Source: Thermodesulfobacteriota bacterium
GTDB lineage: Bacteria > Desulfobacterota_D > UBA1144 > Nemesobacterales > JAJCZQ01
Reading direction: 5' to 3'
Length of the DNA stretch: 64,000 nt
Assembly (NCBI GenBank): GCA_965215275.1
Contig: OZ244044.1
Span: forward strand, 1,440,001 to 1,504,000
The notes under the pieces were generated by a model that did not search any database, was not told the DNA's origin, and saw only the letters and a program-made list of their open reading frames with translations. The position numbers and the translations under genes were made by a program. Shown piece after piece: positions 1-22,672 of this stretch. Positions within the stretch are counted from its first letter, which is position 1, and the number at the start of each line of letters is the position of its first letter.

Positions 1-2
1 GA

Positions 3-1463
3 AGGTCAGAGGTACTGACGGACAACGAACTCATTGAGTTCAGGTACAGCGGGAGGCCGGCTGCTTTTTTAAGAGGTTTCAAGGCTTTTTATTTTTCCAC
101 TATATTTAACTTTATCGTTATAGGGTGGGTAGTATCAGCAATGTCAAAAGTTCTTGGAGTGTTCTTTGGTATTGACAAGGTTTATGCTGTAACGGTATGT
201 CTGGGTATTGCCTTTTTCTACACAATGCTCTCGGGGCTCTGGGGTGTTGTCGTAACCGATTTTATCCAGTACTTTCTGGCACTTGTCGGGACCGTTCTTC
301 TTGCCGTTATTGTGGTGAACTCTCCGGAAATAGGTGGTTATTCTTCATTTATTGAAAAGCTAAATGATATTGACGGTAAACATTTGAAGATGTTTATATC
401 TTCATGCGACACCTGTAATGAGACAGGTTTTATATCGTCTGATCTGTTTACTTTTCTGATATTTGTCACGGTTGTTTGGTGGTCTTCTCATAATGCTGAT
501 GGAGGTGGATATTTTATTCAGAGGTTTTTATCTGCAAAGAATGAAAAACATGCTGTTTTGGGAATGATCTGGTTTGTATTTAATCACTACATAGTGAGGT
601 TCTGGCCATGGGTTGTTGTGGCAGTTGCATCGCTGATCGTATATCCAGTCCCTGAAGTTACCTCGGGAGATCAGGAGACCATTTACGTCTTGATGATAAG
701 AGAGTTTTTAGGTCCTGGATTAAAAGGACTGTTACTCGTGACGTTCATTGCGGCGTTTATGTCCACCATCTCGACGCAGCTCAACCTGGGTGCATCCTAT
801 TTGCTGAACGATGTTTACAGGAGGTTTATTAATAAAAACGGTTCTGATGCCCACTACGTTTCAGCATCCAGACTCCTTACCTTTTTGCTAACAGTTGTAT
901 CGGGGATCATAGCTTTTCAGATCAAGAATATCGGAGACGCATGGATATTTGTCTGGGCAATGAGTTCCGGTATAGGGTTAGTTCTGATATTGAGATGGTT
1001 TTGGTGGAGAATAAACGCATGGTCGGAAATAGCTGCACTTTCATCGTCTCTGTTCTCAATTCTGCTCATTATAGTTTTTACCAGATACATGGGATATGAT
1101 CTGGAGTTTAAATATCAGGTGCTTGTGATCCCTATATCTATAACGTGCTGGGTTATTGCCACGTTTGTAACGGCTCCCGAACCGAAAGAGAAGCTCGGAG
1201 AGTTCTATCAGAAGGTCAGACCTTGGGGGTTCTGGTCGCCGATTTCAAGTATAAGGCCTGAGGTCAGGGTGTCTTCTTTCTTCCCGGTATTGATCAATTG
1301 GCTTCTGGGAAACTGTGCAGTGATCGCCGCATTAACTGGAACTGGTAAGGTAATCTTTGGAAAATTTAATGAAGGTGTTCTTTTGATAGCTTTATCTTTG
1401 TTTGTATCATCGGTACTTTTCTTTCGCTTAAAGAAAGATTTTTCTGGTTCTGATGTTAAATAA
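3..1463 (+). CDS. Sodium:solute symporter family protein, 5' end outside the window
   Basis: Frame open from base 3 (RSEVLTDNELIEFRYSG...AAFLRGFKA); many TM segments; SSS motifs SGLWGVVVTDFIQ, QRFLSAKNE, AAFMSTISTQLN. Confidence 0.85.
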   Translation, partial: RSEVLTDNELIEFRYSGRPAAFLRGFKAFYFSTIFNFIVIGWVVSAMSKVLGVFFGIDKVYAVTVCLGIAFFYTMLSGLWGVVVTDFIQYFLALVGTVLLAVIVVNSPEIGGYSSFIEKLNDIDGKHLKMFISSCDTCNETGFISSDLFTFLIFVTVVWWSSHNADGGGYFIQRFLSAKNEKHAVLGMIWFVFNHYIVRFWPWVVVAVASLIVYPVPEVTSGDQETIYVLMIREFLGPGLKGLLLVTFIAAFMSTISTQLNLGASYLLNDVYRRFINKNGSDAHYVSASRLLTFLLTVVSGIIAFQIKNIGDAWIFVWAMSSGIGLVLILRWFWWRINAWSEIAALSSSLFSILLIIVFTRYMGYDLEFKYQVLVIPISITCWVIATFVTAPEPKEKLGEFYQKVRPWGFWSPISSIRPEVRVSSFFPVLINWLLGNCAVIAALTGTGKVIFGKFNEGVLLIALSLFVSSVLFFRLKKDFSGSDVK

Positions 1464-1496
1464 TGGAATTATATAGTTAAGTTGACAAGAAAGAAC

Positions 1497-1525
1497 TTGT
1501 AAAATTGGTCAGAAAATGGTAGTAT
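1497..1525 (+). promoter_or_regulatory. Putative sigma70 promoter of tnpB (probably leaderless mRNA)
   Basis: TTGTAA (1497-1502), 17 bp, TAGTAT (1520-1525) with TG extension; ATG 6 nt after the -10 box. Confidence 0.45.
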
Positions 1526-1531
1526 TATAGC

Positions 1532-2755
1532 ATGGTTAGAACGATTACAAGAACTGTAAAGGCAGATAGTGGTTTTCATAAAAGGCTGGATGAATTCTTA
1601 AATCAGCTTACCGATCTGTATAACAGTGCCTTGTACCATAGGTTAAAATCCTGGGATTGGTATGGAAGAACTATCTCTAAATACGAACAGTTTAACGAAC
1701 TAACTGAGGTCCGAGAGCAAGACAAGGGATTTGAAAAGTTTAATGCGGTAGCTCAAAGAAGCGTTCTGGAAAGACTGGATAATGCATATAGTCCTTATTT
1801 GAGCTATTTAAGGAATAAAAAAGCAGGTAAGAAGGTAAGGAAGGTTGGCAGACCTAAATATAAAAGTTCAAACAGACCAGTTCGTTCATTTGAAACAAAC
1901 AATTATAAAAACATAAAGAAGACAGGCAGAAGAACATATTTAACGATAAAGGGACTTGGCAGATTATCTTTCAAAGGTAGTATGCCAGAGTGTGTTTGTT
2001 TGAAAGCACCTAAAACAATAATAAGAGTAATTCAAAGTTCGTTAAGAATTAAGCTCCAGTTTCTGTGTGAGTTTACAGATGAGAAGAAGAGACCTTTGGA
2101 TAAATCCATAGGGATAGATCTTGGAATAACAAACAGATTAGCTTTTTCAGATGGAACTAAAGTTCCCGGTATCAGGATAGACAGGAAGGAACTGAAAAGA
2201 AAGCAAAGAATTGTTTCAAGAGCGGTAAAAGGTTCTGACAGCAGAAAGAAGAAAGTTTTATCGTTAGCGAAGGAATGGGAACGAACTACCGATCGTGAAA
2301 ATAATGCTATACACAGATTAACAACAGAGACCGTAAAGAAGAGTAATCATATAAAATTAGAGGATTTGAATATACAAGGAATGGTAAAGAACCATCATCT
2401 TGCTAAATCCATAACGGAACAGCAATGGGGTAAGATCAAACATCAACTTGCTTACAAAGCCGAGATAGCTGGAGGCAAGCTGGTTTTAGTTAAAGCTCAT
2501 TATACAACAAGAGCCTGTTCTGAATGTGGAAAGATAAATCCAAAACTGCCTTTGTATCAAAGAGTATTTAACTGTATATATTGCGGTTATTCAGAAGACA
2601 GGGATATAAATGCAGGTAAAAATATCAATACTCTTAATGAAGGAGACTTCATGTCGGGCGGGAATAAGGTAGCAATACTCCCGATGAGTGCTAAGAGTAT
2701 CAGATCAAAAGAGAACAGGGATAGAGGAACTCTGCACTCAGAACAGTATAGGTAA
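1532..2755 (+). CDS. tnpB: RNA-guided endonuclease TnpB (IS200/IS605 OrfB-like), 407 aa
   Basis: RuvC-I IGIDLG, RuvC-II KLEDL, zinc ribbon CSEC...CIYC, RuvC-III DRDINA; all three catalytic acidic residues present; no tnpA nearby. Confidence 0.93.
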   Translation: MVRTITRTVKADSGFHKRLDEFLNQLTDLYNSALYHRLKSWDWYGRTISKYEQFNELTEVREQDKGFEKFNAVAQRSVLERLDNAYSPYLSYLRNKKAGKKVRKVGRPKYKSSNRPVRSFETNNYKNIKKTGRRTYLTIKGLGRLSFKGSMPECVCLKAPKTIIRVIQSSLRIKLQFLCEFTDEKKRPLDKSIGIDLGITNRLAFSDGTKVPGIRIDRKELKRKQRIVSRAVKGSDSRKKKVLSLAKEWERTTDRENNAIHRLTTETVKKSNHIKLEDLNIQGMVKNHHLAKSITEQQWGKIKHQLAYKAEIAGGKLVLVKAHYTTRACSECGKINPKLPLYQRVFNCIYCGYSEDRDINAGKNINTLNEGDFMSGGNKVAILPMSAKSIRSKENRDRGTLHSEQYR

Positions 2756-2802
2756 GTTTGTCTACTTAACTATATAATTCCCTTAAATAAGTTCATCTTA
2801 TG
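2650..2802 (+). ncRNA. Predicted TnpB omegaRNA scaffold overlapping the tnpB 3' end, plus about 20 nt putative guide from the flank; boundaries approximate
   Basis: Stems TGAGTGC(2685-91)/GCACTCA(2734-40) and 2747-2774; conserved with compensatory or G-U changes at 44830-44963; canonical omegaRNA position. Confidence 0.65.
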
Positions 2803-2822
2803 TGTTAAATTAAATACTGATC

Positions 2823-3416
2823 ATGGCTATAAAAGTAAAAGAAGTTCAACCGCCAAAACTCAGTTTTTTTGAGAAGTTGTATTTTCCACAGATATTTGGG
2901 GGTTTATGGATTACTTTGAAGCACCTTTTGGGATTTAACCCTATCACGGTTCAGTATCCGGAAGAGGTGAAAGAGCTTCCTCCAAATTATAGAGGTCTTC
3001 ACATTATGCCTGGTGATGATAATGGAGAGATCAGGTGTGTAGCATGTAAGTTGTGTGAAGTAGCTTGTCCGACGCAGGCAATATCGATCGTTGCTGAAGC
3101 TGCCGATGATTACGGGATTGAAAGACGACCTAAGGTATATAACATAGATTTTATGCGCTGCGTCTTTTGTGGTTTTTGCGTTGAGGCATGTCCGTGCGAT
3201 GCTTTAAGAATGGGTATGAAATATGAACTTGCGGCTTACAGCAGGGCAGGTCTTGTTCATACTAAAGAAGTTTTCTTTACCCCTAATGTCAAAAGTGATG
3301 CTCCTAGAGATAACGCAAACTACTTGTACGAGATGCAAAAAGGGGATATTTTGGATAATTTTGACATTGTTGAAAAAGTTAAGGAACTAGATGGGAAATA
3401 TCTACGCAAGTTGTGA
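2823..3416 (+). CDS. nuoI: NADH-quinone oxidoreductase subunit I
   Basis: TVQYPEE, CVACKLCEVACP and CVFCGFCVEACP 4Fe-4S motifs. Confidence 0.93.
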   Translation: MAIKVKEVQPPKLSFFEKLYFPQIFGGLWITLKHLLGFNPITVQYPEEVKELPPNYRGLHIMPGDDNGEIRCVACKLCEVACPTQAISIVAEAADDYGIERRPKVYNIDFMRCVFCGFCVEACPCDALRMGMKYELAAYSRAGLVHTKEVFFTPNVKSDAPRDNANYLYEMQKGDILDNFDIVEKVKELDGKYLRKL

Positions 3417-3417
3417 A

Positions 3418-4774
3418 GTTGTGAATAGCGGGCAGGTTTCAGTCAGTTACAATGGAGGAACAAAATGAGTATAGCAAACAACGGTTGTGAATAGCGGGCA
3501 GGTTTCAGTCAGTTACAATTAATTCCAGTAATAGAACTATCAGATACTTGTTGTGAATAGCGGGCAGGTTTCAGTCAGTTACAATGGTCCGCAGACGAGA
3601 TGCTAAAGGGGATCGAGTTGTGAATAGCGGGCAGGTTTCAGTCAGTTACAATACGAGCTGCAATGATGACTACGGCAATGAAGTTGTGAATAGCGGGCAG
3701 GTTTCAGTCAGTTACAATAAATGGAAAGAGAGTCACCGGCAATAACCGGTTGTGAATAGCGGGCAGGTTTCAGTCAGTTACAATTTTGGATGAACGGAGA
3801 GGAAGTCCCGAACGTTGTGAATAGCGGGCAGGTTTCAGTCAGTTACAATTTATCCGGATGCGTTTAACAATGGAGCGCCGTTGTGAATAGCGGGCAGGTT
3901 TCAGTCAGTTACAATTCTCTGCGGTAAGGTCAAACACATCATACTGTTGTGAATAGCGGGCAGGTTTCAGTCAGTTACAATAAATAACCGCGACTGTCTT
4001 TTCTTTCTTTAGTTGTGAATAGCGGGCAGGTTTCAGTCAGTTACAATCATCTTTTTTGATTATATCATACTCCTTTAGTTGTGAATAGCGGGCAGGTTTC
4101 AGTCAGTTACAATGTTTTAATCGTGGACGCATCATGCGCAGGTGTTGTGAATAGCGGGCAGGTTTCAGTCAGTTACAATAGTTATCCGTTTCGTCTATGT
4201 AGAGCGTGTGGTTGTGAATAGCGGGCAGGTTTCAGTCAGTTACAATTCGTCGTGCTCGCTGTGTCCTGGCTCTTCGTTGTGAATAGCGGGCAGGTTTCAG
4301 TCAGTTACAATGGCACTATTCAACCCCGCTTTCAACAATAGGTTGTGAATAGCGGGCAGGTTTCAGTCAGTTACAATTGGCGAGTTATTTATCTCCATGG
4401 CGGGAGTTGTTGTGAATAGCGGGCAGGTTTCAGTCAGTTACAATGCGTCCCGGCTCCAATGGAATAACTATAAAGTTGTGAATAGCGGGCAGGTTTCAGT
4501 CAGTTACAATAAAGGATGCTTTACAAACTTGGGACTTAAAGTTGTGAATAGCGGGCAGGTTTCAGTCAGTTACAATATAATCCTTGTCTGTTACGTTGTA
4601 ACTCTGGTTGTGAATAGCGGGCAGGTTTCAGTCAGTTACAATACGTTCTTCCATTCTAATACCCTCCCGGTTGTTGTGAATAGCGGGCAGGTTTCAGTCA
4701 GTTACAATAGCGACTCAATGTTCATGGGTCGGCCGGAAGTTGTGAATAGCGGGCAGGTTTCAGTCAGTTACAAT
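3418..4774 (+). CRISPR. Type II-C CRISPR array, 21 identical 36-bp repeats and 20 spacers of 29-31 bp
   Basis: Repeat GTTGTGAATAGCGGGCAGGTTTCAGTCAGTTACAAT, first 3418-3453, last 4739-4774; + orientation inferred from G-U wobbles with the anti-repeat. Confidence 0.98.
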
Positions 4775-4824
4775 ACTTTGCCCGCAACTGCCCTGCCAGC
4801 AAGGGGTTGAGCTTCCCCAACAAA

Positions 4825-5154
4825 TTAAAAAAGAGATATTTGTTGGGGAGTTCTCTCTGGTTTTCTGTGTTTTTTTCCATAAAAAACTTGCATTCGTCCA
4901 AATTGTTTATCCGTTATAGTAATAACTCTAACTTCTCCACGAGGGGGTAAGGCATCTCTGATACGTCCTGAATGAACATAGGCGTTTTCCTCGCTTGCAC
5001 AATGTCTAGCATATACGGAAAACTGCATCATTATAAATCCATCTTGCATTAATGACTTTCTGAATTTTCCATAAGACCGTCTTGCCTGTTTTGTATCGGT
5101 TGGCAGGTCAAACATTACTATTACCCACAAAGTCCTATATCCTCCGAAAGCCAA
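4825..5154 (-). CDS. cas2: CRISPR-associated endonuclease Cas2
   Basis: WVIVMFDLPT...FRKSLMQDGFIMMQFSVYAR; between cas1 and the array. Confidence 0.95.
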   Translation of the reverse strand: MAFGGYRTLWVIVMFDLPTDTKQARRSYGKFRKSLMQDGFIMMQFSVYARHCASEENAYVHSGRIRDALPPRGEVRVITITDKQFGRMQVFYGKKHRKPERTPQQISLF

Positions 5155-5157
5155 TTC

Positions 5158-6066
5158 TTACACCTCAATTCTCATCTGTTTGTTATCTATCAGTTCCGGA
5201 ATTTTCAATGCACTGGGTCCCTCCGAAAATGCTTTCTTCAAACTGACTGCCATGTGCTGGTTCGCGACTATCATGGGGAATTTGGCTGTTTCAAGCCGGA
5301 CATTTTCTGATAAAATGGACAGAAGTGATAATTTTGTCTTTTTGTCAAGTTCAGATATTCCAGATTCTTTCAATTCATAGACTTTTCTATCAACAAGAGG
5401 CCTTAATGGTTCCATTAGATCATCAGCGAGGCACATAGGGTTATATTGATTATGGTGATGAATGCCAAGTGCGGGATGAAGTCCAGTTCCACACAAAGAT
5501 CGGGCAACTGATGCCCTGACCAAGCTGTATCCATAGTTTAGTAAGGAGTTTATTCCGCCTTCTTTGTAATTTCTTGTAAAACCTTTGCCAAACAGTTTTA
5601 ACCAATATATTCTTGCCGCTTGTGCCTCTATATTTTCAGTGTCGCCACTTTTTATTCTTTTCTTCATTTTGGATAGAGGAGAAGGGTCTTTTTTTAAAAA
5701 AGATAAAGTTCGGGCTTGAGCTTCAGTTTTGGCAATTATTATTTTCTGCCAGAGTCGTTTTTTCAGTGGTTTTTTAACACTGGTTTGCATATTAAGAACT
5801 TTGCTGTGGGTGGAATTGCTGGCAATGGGCAATAAGATGGAAACCGGTAAATGTTTCTGGTCGCAGAAGACTATTGTGCAGTTGTTTTCCTGACACGATG
5901 CTATAAGACTTTGAGAAATTGTAATTGAAGGGTTAGCAAGTACCAATATACCCATGTCTTCTACGGGAACACTGCTATCATCCTCTCCTTCTTTTTTGAT
6001 GATCATCTGATAATTTCTCAGATGCAGGTGAGCGGGATTGCTAACCTCAATAATTCTTTTGATCAT
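5158..6066 (-). CDS. cas1: Type II CRISPR-associated endonuclease Cas1
   Basis: EAQAARIYW, NSLLNYGYSLVR, LGIHH, LADDLMEPLRP. Confidence 0.96.
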   Translation of the reverse strand: MIKRIIEVSNPAHLHLRNYQMIIKKEGEDDSSVPVEDMGILVLANPSITISQSLIASCQENNCTIVFCDQKHLPVSILLPIASNSTHSKVLNMQTSVKKPLKKRLWQKIIIAKTEAQARTLSFLKKDPSPLSKMKKRIKSGDTENIEAQAARIYWLKLFGKGFTRNYKEGGINSLLNYGYSLVRASVARSLCGTGLHPALGIHHHNQYNPMCLADDLMEPLRPLVDRKVYELKESGISELDKKTKLSLLSILSENVRLETAKFPMIVANQHMAVSLKKAFSEGPSALKIPELIDNKQMRIEV

Positions 6067-9000
6067 TGGGGTGTTAAATTTTTGGAGATTAGGTGACCAA
6101 TAGCATTTAAGGATTCTTTTTTTACTTTATACTCTGCCATTAATGTGGAAGGTGATTTTGCCAGTTCCAGCCTCTTTTTTTCATCAAGAGGGAGTTTTTT
6201 GAAATCTTTGTCACTTCTTCCGTCTGTATGTATTCGTAATAACAGCTTAATACATTCTCCATTCTTTCCTCTATCAATTTTTCTTACTCTGTAGAAAAAT
6301 TTTTGTCCATCTTTTTGCACACTTACCATGTCGTTTATACATAAGGACATAATCAACTTCCAATCTTCTCCATGATCATTTTTTACGATTGGAGTTTTAT
6401 GAATTCTTATCCGCTTTGCAACTTCCATCGTAGTTACAACTTCACCTTTGAATTTCCCGGTTTTTTTGTTTTTTATAATTTCCACATGGTGATTGTTTCC
6501 ATAGATCATTACACCCAATATTTTTGCATTGTTTTCAATTTTTCTTTGACAATAAGATTGTTCATAAAATTCTTTTGTTCTCCAAACTCTTGCCCGCCGG
6601 ACAATATCTCCTGTTTTAGGATGTTTAAAAGGGTCTTCTTCTAATTTTTTTTGAGCAGTATTTAATCCACCTCTCATATTAACATAGGTTTCAAAACCTT
6701 CCTTGATTACCGGACATAGTATGTTTTTAAGGTCTTTATCCGTCATGTCAGTCAGATTTTTACGGACAACAATACCTGTCTTACCATTCTCTTTTCTTAT
6801 TCCATAAACCGTTTCTTCATGAAGTGCCCCCGTCAGTTTTCTGTTTGTCGAATGTGAAACGATCATTTGCTTTACAGCGTCTCCCAAACCCTCTCTAATA
6901 TCGTCAAGAGGTGGAGGGACTTCTATACCGTGTTCTGAAGGTATAGAAGCATCATCTGCCTTTGATGCAAGATGAACTATTTGTTTGTATAAACTGCGAT
7001 TTGTAAGTGCAATTACGGTTGCGTCAATTGCATGGTGTCTGTGATCCGTGCGTTCCTTTTTTTCAGTATCACCGAGAATACTGTTTAATCCCCACTGATG
7101 CCGAAGCCAGCCTGTTGCCCCACCTTTTGTGAACGTTACATCACAGCCAAGGGTTCTCATATATTTGCCAGTTTCTTTTGCAATGTAGCGTGCGTCGCTC
7201 AGTTGATTGTTGATAAAATCATCATCAATTTCTTCTGCCTGAATGTTTTTACGTTTTTTAGCAGGATAATTGTCGTTTGTTATTATGCCTTCAATAGTGT
7301 CCCACTGTGGCGTTTCTCCAAATGCTTCCCAAGGCGTTCTGTTGCCCTTCTTTTGGTTTTCTTCGGCTAAACACAAGACTTTGTTCATGTAAGAATTGTC
7401 AAGGGTTCTGCTGTATGGAAGTATATGATCTACTTCGGTCTCATGTGTCCATAAGGTTGTTAATTTGATTATTTTTCCGCTGTAGGAGCATTTCAACTCA
7501 CTTTCTTTCCACAACCTGTATTTTAATTTATCCTCATAATTTATATTTTCTCTGAGAGATAGATGAGGATTTTGTTCACGGATTTCTTTGTATCGTTCCT
7601 CTGCTTCCTCATTTGCCTTTGTGTTATCCTTTTGTGTTTGCAAATATCTTTTATACCTTTCGGTGTTCATTTCCAGGTCTCGTGCCATTTCTATACGTAT
7701 CGCGTTTGGTTTTCCATATTCCTTGATAATTGCATTTACAACGCGGCGAACTTCAAAAAGAGCTTTGGTAACTATAGGATTTGGGATAAAGGGTATTTCC
7801 CTAAGGATGTCTTTGTTGGCAGTTATAGGTTTCGTGATACCTTCGTATCCAGCGAGTTGAACGGCACCTTTTTCTTCAGTAAGTTCGCTTTCCTTATGAT
7901 AAACTCTGCCTTCTTTGAGATAAGGGAGGATTTTGTTAACTGCTTTCAACGATAGATTCCCATGCCCATTCTCCAGTTCCAGAACTGCAAGTTTTACTGC
8001 TTTTTCCAAGTCAAAATTCCAGTGATTTTTGAGTCGTTCTTTCAGTCCTTTTTTGGATTTGTAAGAAATCAGGTCTTCAACGAGCTGTTTCTGTTTTTCT
8101 TCGTTCCAAGAATCCCATTCATCTCCGATAATTTTCCTTATTTTACAAGCCGTTGTGTTTCCCTTGATACCTTTCCTGTTTTTTCCTTCGACTTTTTCCA
8201 GATTGAATTTCGTTTTCTTTTTCAGATCAAGCAGGTCCTTCTTTTTCAGAGCTGCCCATGTAAGACTTTCGTTCTTTTCCAGAGCTGCAGCTATCAGTTT
8301 TTTCTTCTCTAAAGTTGGCTTCACGTCTGTTTCCCCTGTCTCAAAGTCAAACCAGCTCAAATTGTTTATATCCTGCCAGTAGCGAAACTGTTGAAACTCC
8401 AGCCGTCCGAGATGAACTCTTTTTCTGCTTGGTTCAAGTGAACATTTCCCTATTGTTTTTCTGTCCCATTTTATTGGTCTTTGAAAAAATATAATTTTTT
8501 CAATAGCTTCTTTTATCTCTTTTGTGTAAAGGTTTGGATTGAGAGATGATTGTTTCGCAAAGATTTTGTCAAGCTCATCCTGATACATTTTTCTTTCTGT
8601 TCTTCGGTCGTGAAATTTTCCTCTGTTGCGTTTGCGGGACAACGTTGCAAGGTATTCCCCGACGGTTCTCATTCCTGCTTCTTCCATTTTTTCATAGAGT
8701 TCTGTAATATCTTTTTTGAAATCACTTTCTTCTTTATCGGATGGTTTTGCAGCATCAACTTCATCTTCCCTATCAAGAAATTCCTGCACTTCAGTATCTT
8801 CTCGCAGATCTCCAAATCCTGTCTTGCGACTGCTGAGAAATCCACGGCGTGTTCCCATGTGCAGTATCGCACGGCCAAATTCATAGGGTGACAGTTCTTC
8901 GTCCAGTGCTTTTGCCCTTATACGGTAAGGGTCTCCAAGTTCGTTAAGTTCAACTTCAGGACTGGGTTTTCCTTTAAGGGTATCAGGTAAAAATCCTTTG

Positions 9001-9254
9001 CTTATGAGATAGTTTCTCAAACGCGTCTTGCGTCTGTGGCGTCTTTCTATAACCCTTCTCATAAGACGCATATTGCGCCGCTTCTGATTTTTCGGAGTGG
9101 GTGTTTTATCTTCTACCGAACGGATAAATATGCGGCTTCCACAGTCAATTAGTTTTTCAGGTTTTCCATCTTGTTCCTCAACGACGCTCCAGCCGATGGA
9201 GTTCGTTCCCATGTCAATGCCCACCGAATACTCTTTCAGTTTGTTTTTTCCCAA
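6063..9254 (-). CDS. cas9: Type II-C Cas9, 1063 aa (TTG start)
   Basis: RuvC-I GIDMGTNSIGW, Arg-rich bridge helix, HNH EVDHILPYSRTLDNSYMNKVL, RuvC-III HRHHAIDA; no csn2 or cas4 in the locus. Confidence 0.97.
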   Translation of the reverse strand: MGKNKLKEYSVGIDMGTNSIGWSVVEEQDGKPEKLIDCGSRIFIRSVEDKTPTPKNQKRRNMRLMRRVIERRHRRKTRLRNYLISKGFLPDTLKGKPSPEVELNELGDPYRIRAKALDEELSPYEFGRAILHMGTRRGFLSSRKTGFGDLREDTEVQEFLDREDEVDAAKPSDKEESDFKKDITELYEKMEEAGMRTVGEYLATLSRKRNRGKFHDRRTERKMYQDELDKIFAKQSSLNPNLYTKEIKEAIEKIIFFQRPIKWDRKTIGKCSLEPSRKRVHLGRLEFQQFRYWQDINNLSWFDFETGETDVKPTLEKKKLIAAALEKNESLTWAALKKKDLLDLKKKTKFNLEKVEGKNRKGIKGNTTACKIRKIIGDEWDSWNEEKQKQLVEDLISYKSKKGLKERLKNHWNFDLEKAVKLAVLELENGHGNLSLKAVNKILPYLKEGRVYHKESELTEEKGAVQLAGYEGITKPITANKDILREIPFIPNPIVTKALFEVRRVVNAIIKEYGKPNAIRIEMARDLEMNTERYKRYLQTQKDNTKANEEAEERYKEIREQNPHLSLRENINYEDKLKYRLWKESELKCSYSGKIIKLTTLWTHETEVDHILPYSRTLDNSYMNKVLCLAEENQKKGNRTPWEAFGETPQWDTIEGIITNDNYPAKKRKNIQAEEIDDDFINNQLSDARYIAKETGKYMRTLGCDVTFTKGGATGWLRHQWGLNSILGDTEKKERTDHRHHAIDATVIALTNRSLYKQIVHLASKADDASIPSEHGIEVPPPLDDIREGLGDAVKQMIVSHSTNRKLTGALHEETVYGIRKENGKTGIVVRKNLTDMTDKDLKNILCPVIKEGFETYVNMRGGLNTAQKKLEEDPFKHPKTGDIVRRARVWRTKEFYEQSYCQRKIENNAKILGVMIYGNNHHVEIIKNKKTGKFKGEVVTTMEVAKRIRIHKTPIVKNDHGEDWKLIMSLCINDMVSVQKDGQKFFYRVRKIDRGKNGECIKLLLRIHTDGRSDKDFKKLPLDEKKRLELAKSPSTLMAEYKVKKESLNAIGHLISKNLTPQ

Positions 9255-17375: not shown

Positions 17376-18482
17376 ATGAACTATAAAGACATATTTCAGG
17401 AGACCTATCTTAACAACAGCGTTGAACAGTGGCTTATTGCACTTGGAGTTTTGGTTGGTTTAAGCCTTGCACTGTTCACCCTTAACAGGCTGTTTATCAA
17501 ACGCTTTGAAAAAATTTCACGGAAGACCAATAACCAGCTTGATGATCTGGTCGTAAAACTTTTATCTAAAACCAACACTTTGATGCTTATAGTTGCTTCT
17601 CTTTACGTTGGTTCTCTTTTCTTAAATATCAATGAAAGCATGACGTCTGCAAGAAAGAGCATGGTGGTGATAGCCTTGCTCTTCCAGGTTGCATTTTGGT
17701 GTTCGGGCATAATTTCTTACTATACGAACAGACTGCTTAAAGAAGATGAGGGCAAGACTGGGAAAAAGATCACACATATAAAAGCAGTCAGCTTTGTTAT
17801 AGAGGTGTTGTTATGGGTGACCATTATACTTCTCATTGCAAACAATCTGGGGTTCAATATCACTACTTTGATAGCAGGTCTTGGAATTGGAGGTATAGCG
17901 ATAGCCCTGGCACTTCAGAGCATTCTTGGTGATATAATTGCGTCACTCTCAATAATTTTAGATAAACCATTTGAGATCGGTGATTACATAGTAATTGGCG
18001 ACTTGCAAGGGGACGTTGAGAACATAGGTTTAAAAACCACCAGGGTGAAGAGTCTCTCGGGTGAACAGCTGGTTTTTTCCAACAACGACTTGCTTCAAAG
18101 CAGGATAAAGAACTATAAAAAGATGACAGCACGCAGAGTAGTATTCACGCTTGGAGTCGTATATGACACTTCGTATGAAAAGCTGAAGCAGATCCCTCAA
18201 ATATTAAAAGATATTATTACTTCAGTGGATAAAGCGACATTTCTGCGTGCTCACTTCTTCTCCTATGGAGATTTTTCCCTGAACTTTGAAGTAGTTTACA
18301 ACGTTGACGACAATGAATATGGCCAGTATATGGAAGCACAGCAAAACATCAATCTTGCAATACTGAAAAAATTCAGAGAGGAAGGTATAGAGTTTGCCTA
18401 TCCAACTCAAAAGCTTCTTGTTGACAGGGCTGATAATAACGCAGAAATAAAAACCGAATTAAGGGAAAACAGCAGTGGCTAA
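17376..18482 (+). CDS. Small-conductance mechanosensitive channel (MscS family)
   Basis: AGLGIGGIAIALALQ, DKPFEIGD, IGLKTTR, GIEFAYPTQ. Confidence 0.92.
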   Translation: MNYKDIFQETYLNNSVEQWLIALGVLVGLSLALFTLNRLFIKRFEKISRKTNNQLDDLVVKLLSKTNTLMLIVASLYVGSLFLNINESMTSARKSMVVIALLFQVAFWCSGIISYYTNRLLKEDEGKTGKKITHIKAVSFVIEVLLWVTIILLIANNLGFNITTLIAGLGIGGIAIALALQSILGDIIASLSIILDKPFEIGDYIVIGDLQGDVENIGLKTTRVKSLSGEQLVFSNNDLLQSRIKNYKKMTARRVVFTLGVVYDTSYEKLKQIPQILKDIITSVDKATFLRAHFFSYGDFSLNFEVVYNVDDNEYGQYMEAQQNINLAILKKFREEGIEFAYPTQKLLVDRADNNAEIKTELRENSSG

Positions 18483-19857
18483 AAAAGCATGGGGAGGAAG
18501 GTTTACAAGATCTACCAGCAAGGTGGCAGAAAAGTTCTCCGAGTCGGTAAGTTTTGACAGGCGGCTCTATGAAGAGGATATAAGGGCAAGCATTGCACAT
18601 GTTCGTATGCTTGCAAAGCAGAGTATCATTCCAAAGACTGACGCTGATAAGATCATCAAGGGGCTGGGCTCTGTAAAAAAGGAAATAATGTCGGGGAACT
18701 TTCCTTTCAGGGAAGAGTACGAGGATATTCATCTCAATATAGAAAAGCGTTTAATTGAAAAAATTGGGAAAGTCGGTGGAAAGATCCATACCGCCAGAAG
18801 TAGAAATGATCAGGTTTTAGTGGATATTCGTCTTTATATACTGAAAGAAGGCGATAATGTTCTGAAACTGCTGAAAAAGCTGTCAGGTAATTTTATCAAG
18901 TTGGCGGAAAAAAATATGGATGTCGTGATGCCGCTGTATACCCACCTGCAAAGGGCACAGCCCGTGCTTCTTGCTCATCATATGCTGGCGTTCTTTGAAA
19001 TGTTCAGACGCGACGCTGGCAGGTTGAGAGACTGTTTAGAGAGGACCGACGTAAATCCCTTGGGAACTGGAGCAGGGGCGGGGACCTCTTTTCCCGTTAA
19101 CAGGAACTACACGGCTTCCCTGCTCGGATTTAACGCGGTATCCTGCAACAGTATTGACACTGTAAGCGATAGAGACTTTATAGCTGAGTTCATATTCTGC
19201 TGTTCTCTGCTTATGATGCATCTGTCGCGACTGTCTGAAGAACTTGTACTCTGGTCCTCAAAGGAGTTTGACTTTATTGATCTTGGGGATGATTTTACAA
19301 CGGGTTCGAGCATAATGCCTCAGAAAAGAAATCCTGACATGGCAGAATTAACTCGTGGTAAAATAGCAAGGGTATATGGAAATCTGAATGCCATCCTTAC
19401 CCTCCTTAAAGGTCTTCCTCTTTCCTATAATCGTGATATGCAGGAAGATAAGGAACCTCTTTTTGATACGATCGACACCGTCAAATTGTGTCTTGAACTT
19501 AATAGTGAGATGCTGAAGAAAATAAAGTTTAAAAGAGAAAACTTACGCAAGTCCCTTACCGATGGATTTGTAACTGCAACTGATATTGCAGATTATCTGA
19601 CCAGAAAGGGTATGCCTTTCAGAAATGCGCATGAGACCGCTGGGGCGATAGTCAGTTATGCGGAAAAACAGGGCAAGCAACTGGAAGAGCTGTCATTGGA
19701 AGAAATGACAGGTTTTTCAAAATTAATAGAAGTTGATGTCTTTAACTGTATATCAATTCAGGGGTCCGTGGAGAGTAAAACCTCCTACGGAGGCACATCC
19801 CCTAAAAACGTTAAGGCCATGTTGCTTGATGCTAAAAAAGAAATTTCTGATTTTTAA
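18475..19857 (+). CDS. argH: Argininosuccinate lyase
   Basis: WGGRF, HTARSRNDQV, THLQRAQP, GSSIMPQKRNPD. Confidence 0.96.
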   Translation: MAKKAWGGRFTRSTSKVAEKFSESVSFDRRLYEEDIRASIAHVRMLAKQSIIPKTDADKIIKGLGSVKKEIMSGNFPFREEYEDIHLNIEKRLIEKIGKVGGKIHTARSRNDQVLVDIRLYILKEGDNVLKLLKKLSGNFIKLAEKNMDVVMPLYTHLQRAQPVLLAHHMLAFFEMFRRDAGRLRDCLERTDVNPLGTGAGAGTSFPVNRNYTASLLGFNAVSCNSIDTVSDRDFIAEFIFCCSLLMMHLSRLSEELVLWSSKEFDFIDLGDDFTTGSSIMPQKRNPDMAELTRGKIARVYGNLNAILTLLKGLPLSYNRDMQEDKEPLFDTIDTVKLCLELNSEMLKKIKFKRENLRKSLTDGFVTATDIADYLTRKGMPFRNAHETAGAIVSYAEKQGKQLEELSLEEMTGFSKLIEVDVFNCISIQGSVESKTSYGGTSPKNVKAMLLDAKKEISDF

Positions 19858-19886
19858 AGTTTATGATACAGTCTATTTTTATAAAA

Positions 19887-19964
19887 GGCCCTATCGTCTA
19901 GCTTGGTTCAGGACGCAGCCCTCTCAAGGCTGAAACACGGGTTCAAATCCCGTTGGGGCTGCCA
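19887..19964 (+). tRNA. tRNA-Glu (CTC)
   Basis: Anticodon arm CAGCC-CTCTCAA-GGCTG, GGTTCAAATCC T arm, CCA end. Confidence 0.95.
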
Positions 19965-20068
19965 GAAGATTATTAAATGGTTTTTAATTTCCAGTCCGTA
20001 CCGTTTGTTTAAGTTGACTCTATTTGGATGTGGCTGGCGAATACTGAAAGACTTGAGCACGATAATGT

Positions 20069-20844
20069 TTAGAAATCATAATTAAAAATTTCCAGGTCCT
20101 GTGCGTATTTTTTAGCAACCATTTTGCGCAGCTCGTCATCGTAATAGTTCTGGTAGGGACCGTGTTTGGTTGAATTTAGTTTTTCTGGCTTAATATCATC
20201 AGATAGTGAAATCTGTTCTTTTACATAGGAAAAGTCCTGTTCGAAGTTCTCAAGACGTCCGATGAAATCTAATGTCTCCAGGTCCAGCAAATAATGCTGG
20301 GGTACAAAGTGGCCCTCACAATGCTTATCGGGTATTTGGGTTACGAAGTGTACAAAATCACTGAAAGACATTTTTTTGAAGCCCACCAAATTCCCATATC
20401 CTTCTACAAACCCTCTATGTTCTCCATTTATAGCCCAACGATTGGTAGGGTTACGCAATTCTGGGTTATCAACTTTATCTTTATAACAGGAAAGCAGTCT
20501 ATCATATGGGTTTCTGACAAATGTGAAGTGGAAATAATCTTTATATATTGTGGACCTGTTTTCAGGGAAAACTACTCTGGGAATAGGTGTTGTGTGAAGT
20601 TCCGTCCCTTGCTCAATTTCGTCTATTGTAATCATAAAGGATATGATAGTTGTAAATGCAGCTTTAGGAACTGGATAATAGATGAATTTGTGTTTGTGAG
20701 AAACGCGGCCGTCGTGTACTGGCTTTAGAGGAGGATACTTTGTTATTGTAAAAGACCTTTTTTCATTCTTCTTTGGCTTAAGAAAATCCCCCCCCCCCTT
20801 TTTTTTCCCCGTAATGTTTTGTACAATGCTTTAATTATTTTCAT
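20069..20844 (-). pseudogene. Sulfotransferase family 2, copy 1, frameshifted at an A8-G11 tract (20788-20806)
   Basis: ATG 20844 homologous to the copy 2 start; YYPVPKAAFTT and FVRNPYDRLLS motifs in the downstream frame; +1 nt restores the ORF. Confidence 0.8.
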
Positions 20845-20912
20845 TTTGTATTTTCAAGTTATCTGAGAGTTTTTGTGTGCGAATCGAGTTGGATTGTTAC
20901 CTTGCTTCTACT

Positions 20913-20963
20913 TGAAATTATAAGAGATTCATAAAGTTGTATCAAGCAATCTTTATAATTTCA
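20913..20963. mobile_element. 51-bp mini inverted-repeat element (MITE-like)
   Basis: TGAAATTATAAGAGATT ... AATCTTTATAATTTCA; homologous to 21811-21861. Confidence 0.5.
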
Positions 20964-21013
20964 TTTATTTGAATGTGTCTGGCGAATACTGAAAGACTTG
21001 AACATAATAATAG

Positions 21014-21742
21014 TTAGAAGTCATAATTGAAGATTTCCAGGTCCCGTGCGTATTTTTTAGCAACTATTTTGCGCAGTTCGTCATCGTAATAGTTCTGGTA
21101 GGGAAAGTGTTTACTTGCCATCAGTCTTTTTGGCCTGATATAACCAGATAGTGGAATCTGTTCTTTTACATAGGAAAAATCCTGTTCGAAGTTCTCAAGG
21201 CGTCCGATGAAATCTAACTTCTCCAGGTCCAGCAAACGATGCTGGGGTGACCAGTGAGGGTCACAATGCTTATCGGGTATTTGGTTTACGAAGTGTACAA
21301 AATCACTGAAAGACATTTTTTTAAATTCTACATTCCCATATCCTTTTATAAACTCTCTATTTTCTCCATTAATAAACGCATGATCGTTACGGTTAACCGA
21401 TTTTGGATGATATATCTTTTCTATGTAACAGGAAAGCAGTCTGTCATATGGATTTCTAACAAATGCGAAGTGGAAATAATCTTTATATCTAGCGGACCTG
21501 TTATCAGGGAAATATAACGTGGGCATAACTGTTGTGTGAAGGGTAGGACCTTGCTCAATTTCATCTATTGTAATCATAAAGGATTTGATAGTTGAACATG
21601 CAGCTTTAGGAACTGGATAATAGATGAACTTATGCTTGTGAGAAACGAAGCCGTGTACTGGAGGCATATGAGGATATTTTAAAGGGATTTGTCTAATTTT
21701 TGGTTTAAGAATCTCTTTGTATAATTCTTTAATTGTTTTCAT
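21014..21742 (-). CDS. Sulfotransferase family 2, copy 2 (intact)
   Basis: PAPS-binding motifs PVPKAACSTI and FVRNPYDRLLS; DPHWSPQ; FIGRLENF. Confidence 0.88.
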   Translation of the reverse strand: MKTIKELYKEILKPKIRQIPLKYPHMPPVHGFVSHKHKFIYYPVPKAACSTIKSFMITIDEIEQGPTLHTTVMPTLYFPDNRSARYKDYFHFAFVRNPYDRLLSCYIEKIYHPKSVNRNDHAFINGENREFIKGYGNVEFKKMSFSDFVHFVNQIPDKHCDPHWSPQHRLLDLEKLDFIGRLENFEQDFSYVKEQIPLSGYIRPKRLMASKHFPYQNYYDDELRKIVAKKYARDLEIFNYDF

Positions 21743-21810
21743 TCTGTATTTTTAAATTATTTGAAAGTTTTTATGTGCGACCCGAATTGTATTGTTACCG
21801 TGCTGCTACA

Positions 21811-21861
21811 TGAAACTATAAGGGATTCATAAAGTTGTATCAAGCAATCTTTATAGTTCCC
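21811..21861. mobile_element. 51-bp mini inverted-repeat element (MITE-like)
   Basis: TGAAACTATAAGGGATT ... AATCTTTATAGTTCCC; right end reads GGGAACTATAAAGATTG, close to the 44743 MITE end. Confidence 0.55.
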
Positions 21862-21911
21862 TTTATTTGAATGTGGCTGATGGATGCTGAGAGGCCTGAA
21901 CACGATAACAG

Positions 21912-22672
21912 TTAGAAATCATAATTAAAGATTTCCAGGTCACGTGCGTATTTTTTAGCAACCATTTTGCGCAGTTCGTCATCGTAGTAGCTCTGGTAAG
22001 GACCGTGCTTGGTTGTCATTCTTTTTTCTGGCTTAATATCATCAGATAGCGAAATCTGTTCTTTTATATAGGAAAAATCCTGTTCGAAGTTCTCAAGGCG
22101 TCCGATGAAATCTAACGTCTCCAGGTCCAGCAAACGATGCTGAGGCGAAAAGTGAGGGTCACAATGCTCGTCTGGTATTTTGGTTACGAAGTGTACAAAA
22201 TCACTGAAAGACATTTTTTTAAAGCCCATCAAATTCCCGTATCCTTTTACAAACTGTCTATCTTCTCCATTAATAAAATAACGATTGGTAAGGTTAGATA
22301 ATGCTGGGTTATAAACTTTTTGTATGTAACAGGAAAGTAATCGATCATATGGGTTTCTAACAAATGTGAAGTGGAAATAATCTTTATATCTAGCGGACCT
22401 GTGTTCAGGTCGAAATATTCTGGGCATAATCGTTTCGTGAATGCTTTTTGGATCTCGCTTAATTTCGTCTATTGTAATAATAAAGGATATGATAGTTGTA
22501 GATGCAGCTTTAGGAATTGTATAATAGATGAATTTATGTTTGTGAGAAATGTATATGAGTGTTGGACGAGAAGCGTATTTTGTTATTGTAAAAGACTTTT
22601 TCTCACTCTTTTTGGCTTGAGAATACCCCCCCCCATCCGTAATGTTTTGTATAATGCTTTAATTGCTTTCAT
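21912..22672 (-). pseudogene. Sulfotransferase family 2, copy 3, frameshifted at or near a G9 tract (22626-22634)
   Basis: ATG 22672 (MKAIKALYK) runs into TAA; +1 nt gives a continuous frame through YYTIPKAASTT into ORF 21912..22427. Confidence 0.8.

Follow-up and report, generated by a model that had tools for sequence, protein, structure and literature searches.

Bacterial TnpB nucleases linked to DDE transposases have been described before. Altae-Tran et al. 2023 (PMC10691335) distinguished six DDE-associated branches with inverted repeats, DDE-1 to DDE-6, and reported solo TnpBs whose ends are near-identical to those of transposase-bearing elements and for which they proposed movement in trans. 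DDE-5 is grouped there with branches of rearranged catalytic sites and plasmid hosts, and according to the supplement its ends have a TA motif 8 bp upstream; IS1595 is absent from the main text and occurs once in the supplement, in a profile list. A 2026 review (PMC13565253) names ISL2, IS630 and IS1031 as TnpB partners and treats DDE-linked TnpB in bacteria as rare and unexplained. In ISDra2 and ISGst (PMC10097598; 10.1101/2023.03.14.532601), TnpA and TnpB read one motif, excision leaves no scar, and terminal inverted repeats (TIRs) and target-site duplications (TSDs) are lacking. The structure paper on the ISDra2 omegaRNA describes a pseudoknot that pairs -5 to -3 with -103 to -105, just before the guide, and repair from a filled copy has been shown to restore the element for IS605 elements. 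The IS1595 family also includes elements with passenger genes, such as MTnSag1/tISSag10 and tISCpe8 (PMC5704250).

Here we describe a tnpB gene enclosed by IS1595-type ends in a stretch of 64,000 nucleotides, which we call the window. We consider it probable that this is an IS1595-ended, tnpB-only element, moved in trans by the IS1595 DDE transposases of its host and retained through homing by TnpB.

The element and its insertion site

The tnpB-only element occupies 1464-2782 (1.3 kb) and comprises 25-bp TIRs, an exact 8-bp TSD and one intact tnpB, its sole ORF of at least 50 aa. It lies directly 3' of the stop codon of a symporter gene and upstream of nuoI. The features of the locus are as follows.

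141-1463, plus strand: sodium:solute symporter gene (PF00474), left flank
1456-1463, plus strand: left TSD, TTAAATAA, from the sequence and the 8-bp length test; the symporter stop codon forms its last three bases
1464-1488, plus strand: left TIR, IS1595 type, with its terminal base changed from G to T in the window copy
1497-1525, plus strand: possible inward promoter (TTGTAA, 17 nt, TGn-TAGTAT), read by eye and below the scan threshold
1532-2755, plus strand: tnpB, 407 aa, with RuvC residues D196/E277/D358 and a C4 zinc finger intact
2654-2782, plus strand: predicted omegaRNA scaffold, from folds, alignments and covariation
2758-2782, minus strand: right TIR, with 4/24 mismatches against IS1595 TIRs of the same genome and 2/24 against an IS1595 TIR in locus L185
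2783-2798, plus strand: right TSD TTAAATAA (2783-2790) and host flank, predicted guide region
2823-3416, plus strand: nuoI (TIGR01971), right flank

The two TIRs agree at 23 of 25 positions, or 23/24 when counting starts at position 2, and they form the longest of the 68 inverted repeats in positions 1-4500. The earlier note had reported a tnpB with an intact D-E-D set, 23/24 inverted repeats, an exact TTAAATAA duplication and no tnpA, and every one of these observations was confirmed. The first base of the left end is T in the window copy and G in all other copies of its clade (clade A, below); contigs of two sequencing runs, X1 and X5, have the same terminal T and otherwise match the window stretch (0 other letters). 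This change may have immobilised the window copy, which we infer from the altered end; a copy 99.4% identical sits at another genomic site between a different TSD. The candidate promoter ends 6 nt 5' of the ATG and, if used, would yield a leaderless transcript.

The encoded protein scores 192 bits against the NF040570 guided_TnpB model (cut-off 100) and matches the structure of ISDra2 TnpB (E 2e-26); an AlphaFold model made from an 8-row alignment was set aside at a mean pLDDT of 45. In the 94 long proteins, from this genome and its relatives, whose elements have a called TIR pair, the D-E-D set is intact and the RuvC-II glutamate (E277 here) is at its canonical place in 94/94, with no instance of the Fanzor or pro-Fanzor glutamate rearrangement. 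The dN/dS ratio is 0.12-0.33 across all 26 pairs compared, including 5 same-site pairs from different genomes, and 0.21-0.33 between the window tnpB and five paralogues. Because the catalytic set is intact throughout and these ratios are low, TnpB looks functional; it is under purifying selection.

Relatives also preserve the empty site. At 9 of the 14 loci from relatives, nuoI adjoins the symporter gene with a gap of 46-277 bp and no element, and the expectation of an empty site with one copy of the duplication was borne out: two family relatives, G003 and G004, have a single TSD-like 8-mer, TTAGTTAT and TTAATTAT respectively, followed by GTTC, which is what an empty site predicts. Of four sequencing runs compared at the site, X1 and X5 have filled junctions, and none has a joint that bypasses the element; as contigs drop rare variants, this does not speak against an empty allele. 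What looked like a second element upstream of nuoI in G002 proved to be the end of nuoD and was rejected. Further along, window positions 3418-9254 hold a CRISPR array with 36-nt repeats and then minus-strand ORFs that we take, by recognition, to be cas2, cas1 and a 1063-aa cas9.

Copies in the genome and across the order

The source genome (1.99 Mb, one contig) has 24 matches to the TnpB model, and the 25 positions inspected include 19 long copies, all with TIR pairs (19/19). Their TSDs all differ; 12 have at most one mismatch (9 exact, 3 with one), 2 have two mismatches and 5 are lost, in line with the suggestion that other tnpB copies would have TIRs and variable duplications. Exact duplications flanking 77 TIR-like end pairs in the genome numbered 17 at 8 bp, none at 5-7 bp and one at 9 bp, and because of this peak in length the 8-bp duplications are not chance. 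By sequence, the long copies comprise clade A (8 copies of 404-407 aa, the window copy included), clade B (8 copies of 463-485 aa, with 43-51% identity to A) and clade C (3 copies, about 25% identity).

The same genome has 28 matches to the IS1595 transposase (PF12762), several of them intact ORFs of 307-326 aa, in elements with ends of the same kind and 8-bp TSDs; a clade C end and a resident IS1595 end agree at all of 26 bases. The tnpB elements have the makings of non-autonomous IS1595 elements, namely IS1595-like TIRs of ~25 bp, variable AT-rich 8-bp TSDs and a transposase in trans. They depart from IS200/IS605 and IS1341 elements (hairpin ends, no TIR, no TSD, a Y1 TnpA) and from IS607 elements (a serine recombinase, no TIR or TSD) in having both TIR and TSD. 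The genome has no PF00239 match, hence no IS607 resolvase by this model, and no Y1 transposase next to a tnpB; its one weak Y1 match is remote from any tnpB and is presumably RAYT-like. The earlier assignment of the element to IS1595, and away from IS607 and IS200/IS605, therefore stands. The ISNwi subgroup label, like the end consensus of that subgroup, is tentative, and a literature search listed no paper bearing the subgroup name.

The same data bear on the idea that an IS200/IS605- or IS607-type tnpB element is merely nested inside an IS1595 MITE. The canonical catalytic layout of TnpB would suit it, as would the distant homologues L051-L057, which lie in ordinary elements ending in TCAA. 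However, only 68 bp separate the left end from the ATG, with no TCAA-type end; the predicted RNA fold uses the TIR itself; the whole unit moves, with new TSDs each time; and a resolvase or tnpB-linked Y1 transposase is missing from the genome. Nesting is thus largely refuted, and we rate it as extremely improbable.

Other arrangements of these ends occur in the genome. At G000:C1:1742862-1743187 lies an internally deleted clade A derivative of 326 bp that retains both ends, the omegaRNA region, an exact TSD and the flank motif TG^T described below, and at 1616480-1619604 a back-to-back pair of clade B elements is separated by 16 bp. Elements of 420-446 bp bearing the tnpB-element TIRs were seen at 17470-21955 and 1897941-1900957, and a pair of them flanks a 4.5-kb segment with one common 8-bp TSD, like a composite transposon. 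At 1013763, a lone clade A-like left end precedes what reads as the degraded start of a clade C tnpB. The cargo of autonomous IS1595 elements of this genome (L227-L232) includes DNA methyltransferases, methyltransferase-HNH fusions and a HicA-domain gene, and 6 of 11 IS1595 cargo proteins have Pfam matches.

Relatives were gathered by profile search of genomes. Of the 101 genomes of the order searched with an A+B profile, 30 gave matches, among them 27 of the 36 in g10, which is another genus of the order; the 4 family relatives gave none. In the congener G001, a single tnpB 3' end, which has the same right end, lies at the edge of a contig. We retrieved 89 of the 122 matches outside the source genome for inspection, and found a credible TIR pair in 75 of 87 g10 loci, where the architecture spans at least three TnpB lineages. 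After removal of 18 of 115 loci that had no TIR pair and of three implausible pairs (L130, L143, L166), 49 of 94 elements have an exact TSD and 35 have lost a clean one. IS1595 is present in 28 of the 36 g10 genomes, and the right TIRs of 59 of 94 tnpB elements are within 3/24 mismatches of an IS1595 TIR; none of the 44 IS1595 loci is an autonomous element carrying tnpB. A related-locus search returned no relative among genome contigs or viral contigs, the metagenome search returned only 7 distant ordinary elements, and the best plasmid matches are only about 26-32% identical.

A FastTree of 135 proteins separates A+B, D (~395 aa), E (~409 aa) and C, with D and E both from g10. Database homologues of unknown context fall between A+B and D, and ordinary TnpBs between the A+B/D group and C/E; because such proteins lie between the clades, the tree, which is midpoint-rooted and carries no formal test, suggests that TnpB was captured at least twice and probably three or four times. 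The proposal that a DDE-type element captured TnpB and was mobilised in trans is supported by every check that the earlier note suggested, and the movement in trans itself we infer; the novelty implied for bacteria was overstated, as such capture was reported in 2023 (PMC10691335). On the minus strand of L086 (G019), a tnpB without TIRs at about 1754-550, sister to clade E (support 0.955), is followed directly at about 539-380 by repeats of 39 nt, two complete and a third partial, separated by 27-nt spacers, possibly a nascent CRISPR-type array.

The flank motif, the predicted omegaRNA and their possible origins

Each TnpB lineage is accompanied by its own short motif at the left flank. In the window it reads as follows, the caret marking the start of the left TSD.

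1454-1456, plus strand: TG^T, predicted TAM, made of TG before the left TSD and the first TSD base

We compared 56 distinct sites having a TSD with 0-1 mismatch (35 elements without one and 3 same-site duplicates were removed) with the 80 ends of 40 tnpB-free elements. G^T abuts the left TSD in 6/6 clade A sites (mirror position 0/6; controls 2/80), G stands at -1 in 28/29 clade D sites from 14 genomes (mirror 7/29; controls 16/80; p 1e-13) and RR^A is found in 14/15 clade E sites (mirror 2/15; controls 11/80). At three sites each, clade B has A^T in 3/3 (mirror 1/3; controls 14/80) and clade C has TA^A in 3/3 (mirror 0/3; controls 6/80). The motif is one-sided, occurring at the left TSD in tnpB orientation only, and differs by TnpB lineage even within one genome; the control elements have no such motif, with G at -1 in 9 left and 7 right ends. 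Because the motifs were chosen on the same sites on which they were tested, and sites from one genus lack independence, the p values overstate significance; still, the D and E motifs are far from background. Even the youngest copies, which share 95-99% identity with another copy, conform to the motif. It is likely to be the TnpB recognition site (TAM), with very short predicted forms: G^W, TG^T and RR^A.

At the other end, the last 129 bases are predicted to fold into three stems and a pseudoknot.

2654-2658 with 2680-2684, plus strand: predicted omegaRNA stem 1
2685-2691 with 2734-2740, plus strand: predicted omegaRNA stem 2
2746-2751 with 2770-2775, plus strand: predicted terminal hairpin, which uses the right TIR
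2660-2665 (GGGAAT) with 2777-2782 (ATTCCC), plus strand: predicted pseudoknot

In the terminal hairpin the inner right TIR and its upstream strand covary (31 two-sided changes, 92.9% paired), and cognate strands pair better than swapped partners in 62 of 65 cases. Pairing of the GGGA(AT) loop with the TIR tip is possible in 86% of cells in A, B and D and 93% in E and C, with two-sided changes in 3 cells of the A3 alignment and none in A4, where pseudoknot covariation is not above shuffles (179/500). The first stem is misaligned between clades in A3 (51.6% paired) and was left out of evidence. Rfam gave no match for the predicted omegaRNA, a search for RNA data sets containing the sequence listed none, and an omegaRNA-like fold is predicted to be conserved up to the TIR tip across lineages. 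We rejected a fixed internal guide lying between GAACAGT and the TIR, because this stretch pairs with the TIR as the covarying hairpin. From the position of the pseudoknot and the ISDra2 structure paper, the guide is predicted to be the right TSD plus host flank. The only exact genomic match of the predicted 16-nt guide sits behind TCCC and not behind the motif: the left filled junction has the motif and 6/16 guide mismatches, and the right filled junction has the target behind TCCC.

These observations would fit together if the element were retained by homing. A borrowed IS1595 transposase would insert it at AT-rich 8-mers, and transcription across its right end would give an omegaRNA with a scaffold ending at the TIR tip and a guide drawn from the right TSD and host flank. 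The scaffold perhaps extends one base into the TSD, which would explain why the first TSD base is fixed. An empty allele, with motif, one TSD and flank, would be cut and then repaired from a filled copy, whereas a filled allele would be spared because the motif and the full target flank the element on opposite sides. As the transposase has no matching preference, only insertions that happen to land behind the motif would be protected and hence accumulate. Long residence would also predict TIR decay, and perfect TIRs are rarer in tnpB elements (3/59) than in control elements (22/40), the right TIR being further constrained by its predicted role in the RNA. Against this account, the closest IS1595 TIRs in the genome are 4/24 bases off the window right TIR, which points to no particular helper; a review passage indicates that IS1595 excision may be replicative, leaving the donor filled and homing less needed; the pseudoknot, 86% paired, has few two-sided cells; and 0/44 IS1595 loci carry tnpB, 35/94 elements have no clean TSD, and clades B and C contribute 3 sites each.

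A slow retention filter also explains less easily why the youngest copies already obey the motif. That new-site copies do so, that compliance is near-complete (28/29, 6/6, 14/15) while IS1595 elements with like ends are unbiased, and that the motif tracks TnpB lineage inside one genome would all be expected if TnpB-omegaRNA at the right end, or TnpB scanning for its TAM, biased the IS1595 transpososome to insert in fixed orientation behind the motif. Yet retention alone can give the same pattern if unprotected copies vanish fast, and the decayed TIRs, together with 5 insertions kept at the same site in two genomes, fit long retention; we regard such steering as unlikely.

The motif could instead be an oriented target preference of each helper transposase, with TnpB as passive cargo and the terminal hairpin as a sub-terminal repeat. 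IS1595 elements here routinely bear cargo (methyltransferases, HNH proteins), and circle intermediates, mentioned in a review passage, could insert asymmetrically. The 40 control elements have no one-sided motif, though, TnpB is under purifying selection with its triad intact, and the omegaRNA-like fold is kept up to the TIR tip across lineages; we give this explanation little credence.

Retention by homing remains our preferred account. A bolder version, speculative and in our judgement a long shot, is that IS1595 shells made at least three TnpB captures in one order, each with an omegaRNA rebuilt on the right TIR and a TAM deciding landing or survival. If true, it would mean nuclease-steered target choice by a transposase without a preference of its own and without CRISPR or Tn7 machinery. 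IS605 elements do not allow a flank motif to be credited to TnpB alone, because TnpA also recognises it; here the one-sided bias would be a clean nuclease footprint, because the IS1595 transposase family shows no motif. What TnpB gives a bacterial DDE transposon becomes a testable question, for which dozens of dated insertions with predicted TAMs and RNA boundaries are available. If they hold, the short predicted TAMs (G^W, TG^T, RR^A) could be useful for compact genome editors.

Relation to known systems

The concept of DDE elements with TnpB, solo copies included, is already published, and the text and supplement of that study do not name IS1595 as a partner (PMC10691335). A literature search that left most subscription journals outside its coverage found no title or abstract opening describing TnpB in IS1595 ends. 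Like the solo TnpBs of that study, those described here lie between inverted terminal repeats with no transposase of their own, and, in contrast to its DDE-associated TnpBs, no element here has both tnpA and tnpB. They also differ from DDE-5 in having canonical catalytic sites and chromosomal locations, although the transposase partner of DDE-5 may itself be IS1595.

With MTnSag1/tISSag10 and tISCpe8 (PMC5704250) the elements share TIRs of about 25 bp, 8-bp duplications, AT-rich targets and the carriage of cargo; in contrast, the elements described here encode no transposase and carry an RNA-guided nuclease, with the right TIR incorporated in its predicted RNA. As in ISDra2 and ISGst (PMC10097598; 10.1101/2023.03.14.532601), tnpB overlaps a predicted omegaRNA that ends at the right end and has a predicted pseudoknot, a motif lies 5' of the left end, and the flank is predicted to serve as the guide; the predicted pseudoknot occupies a position matching that in the ISDra2 omegaRNA. 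Unlike in those elements, the IS1595 transposase family has no such motif, and the element is set apart from its motif by a variable 8-bp TSD.

The closest eukaryotic counterpart is the Fanzors of DDE transposons (PMC13565253), where TnpB-type nucleases were likewise captured repeatedly by transposons with TIRs and TSDs and where, as predicted here, part of the 5' TSD is read as the TAM. The elements described here are bacterial, however, their RuvC-II glutamate is at the canonical place about 50 residues before the zinc finger, and the pseudoknot is predicted to have been kept.
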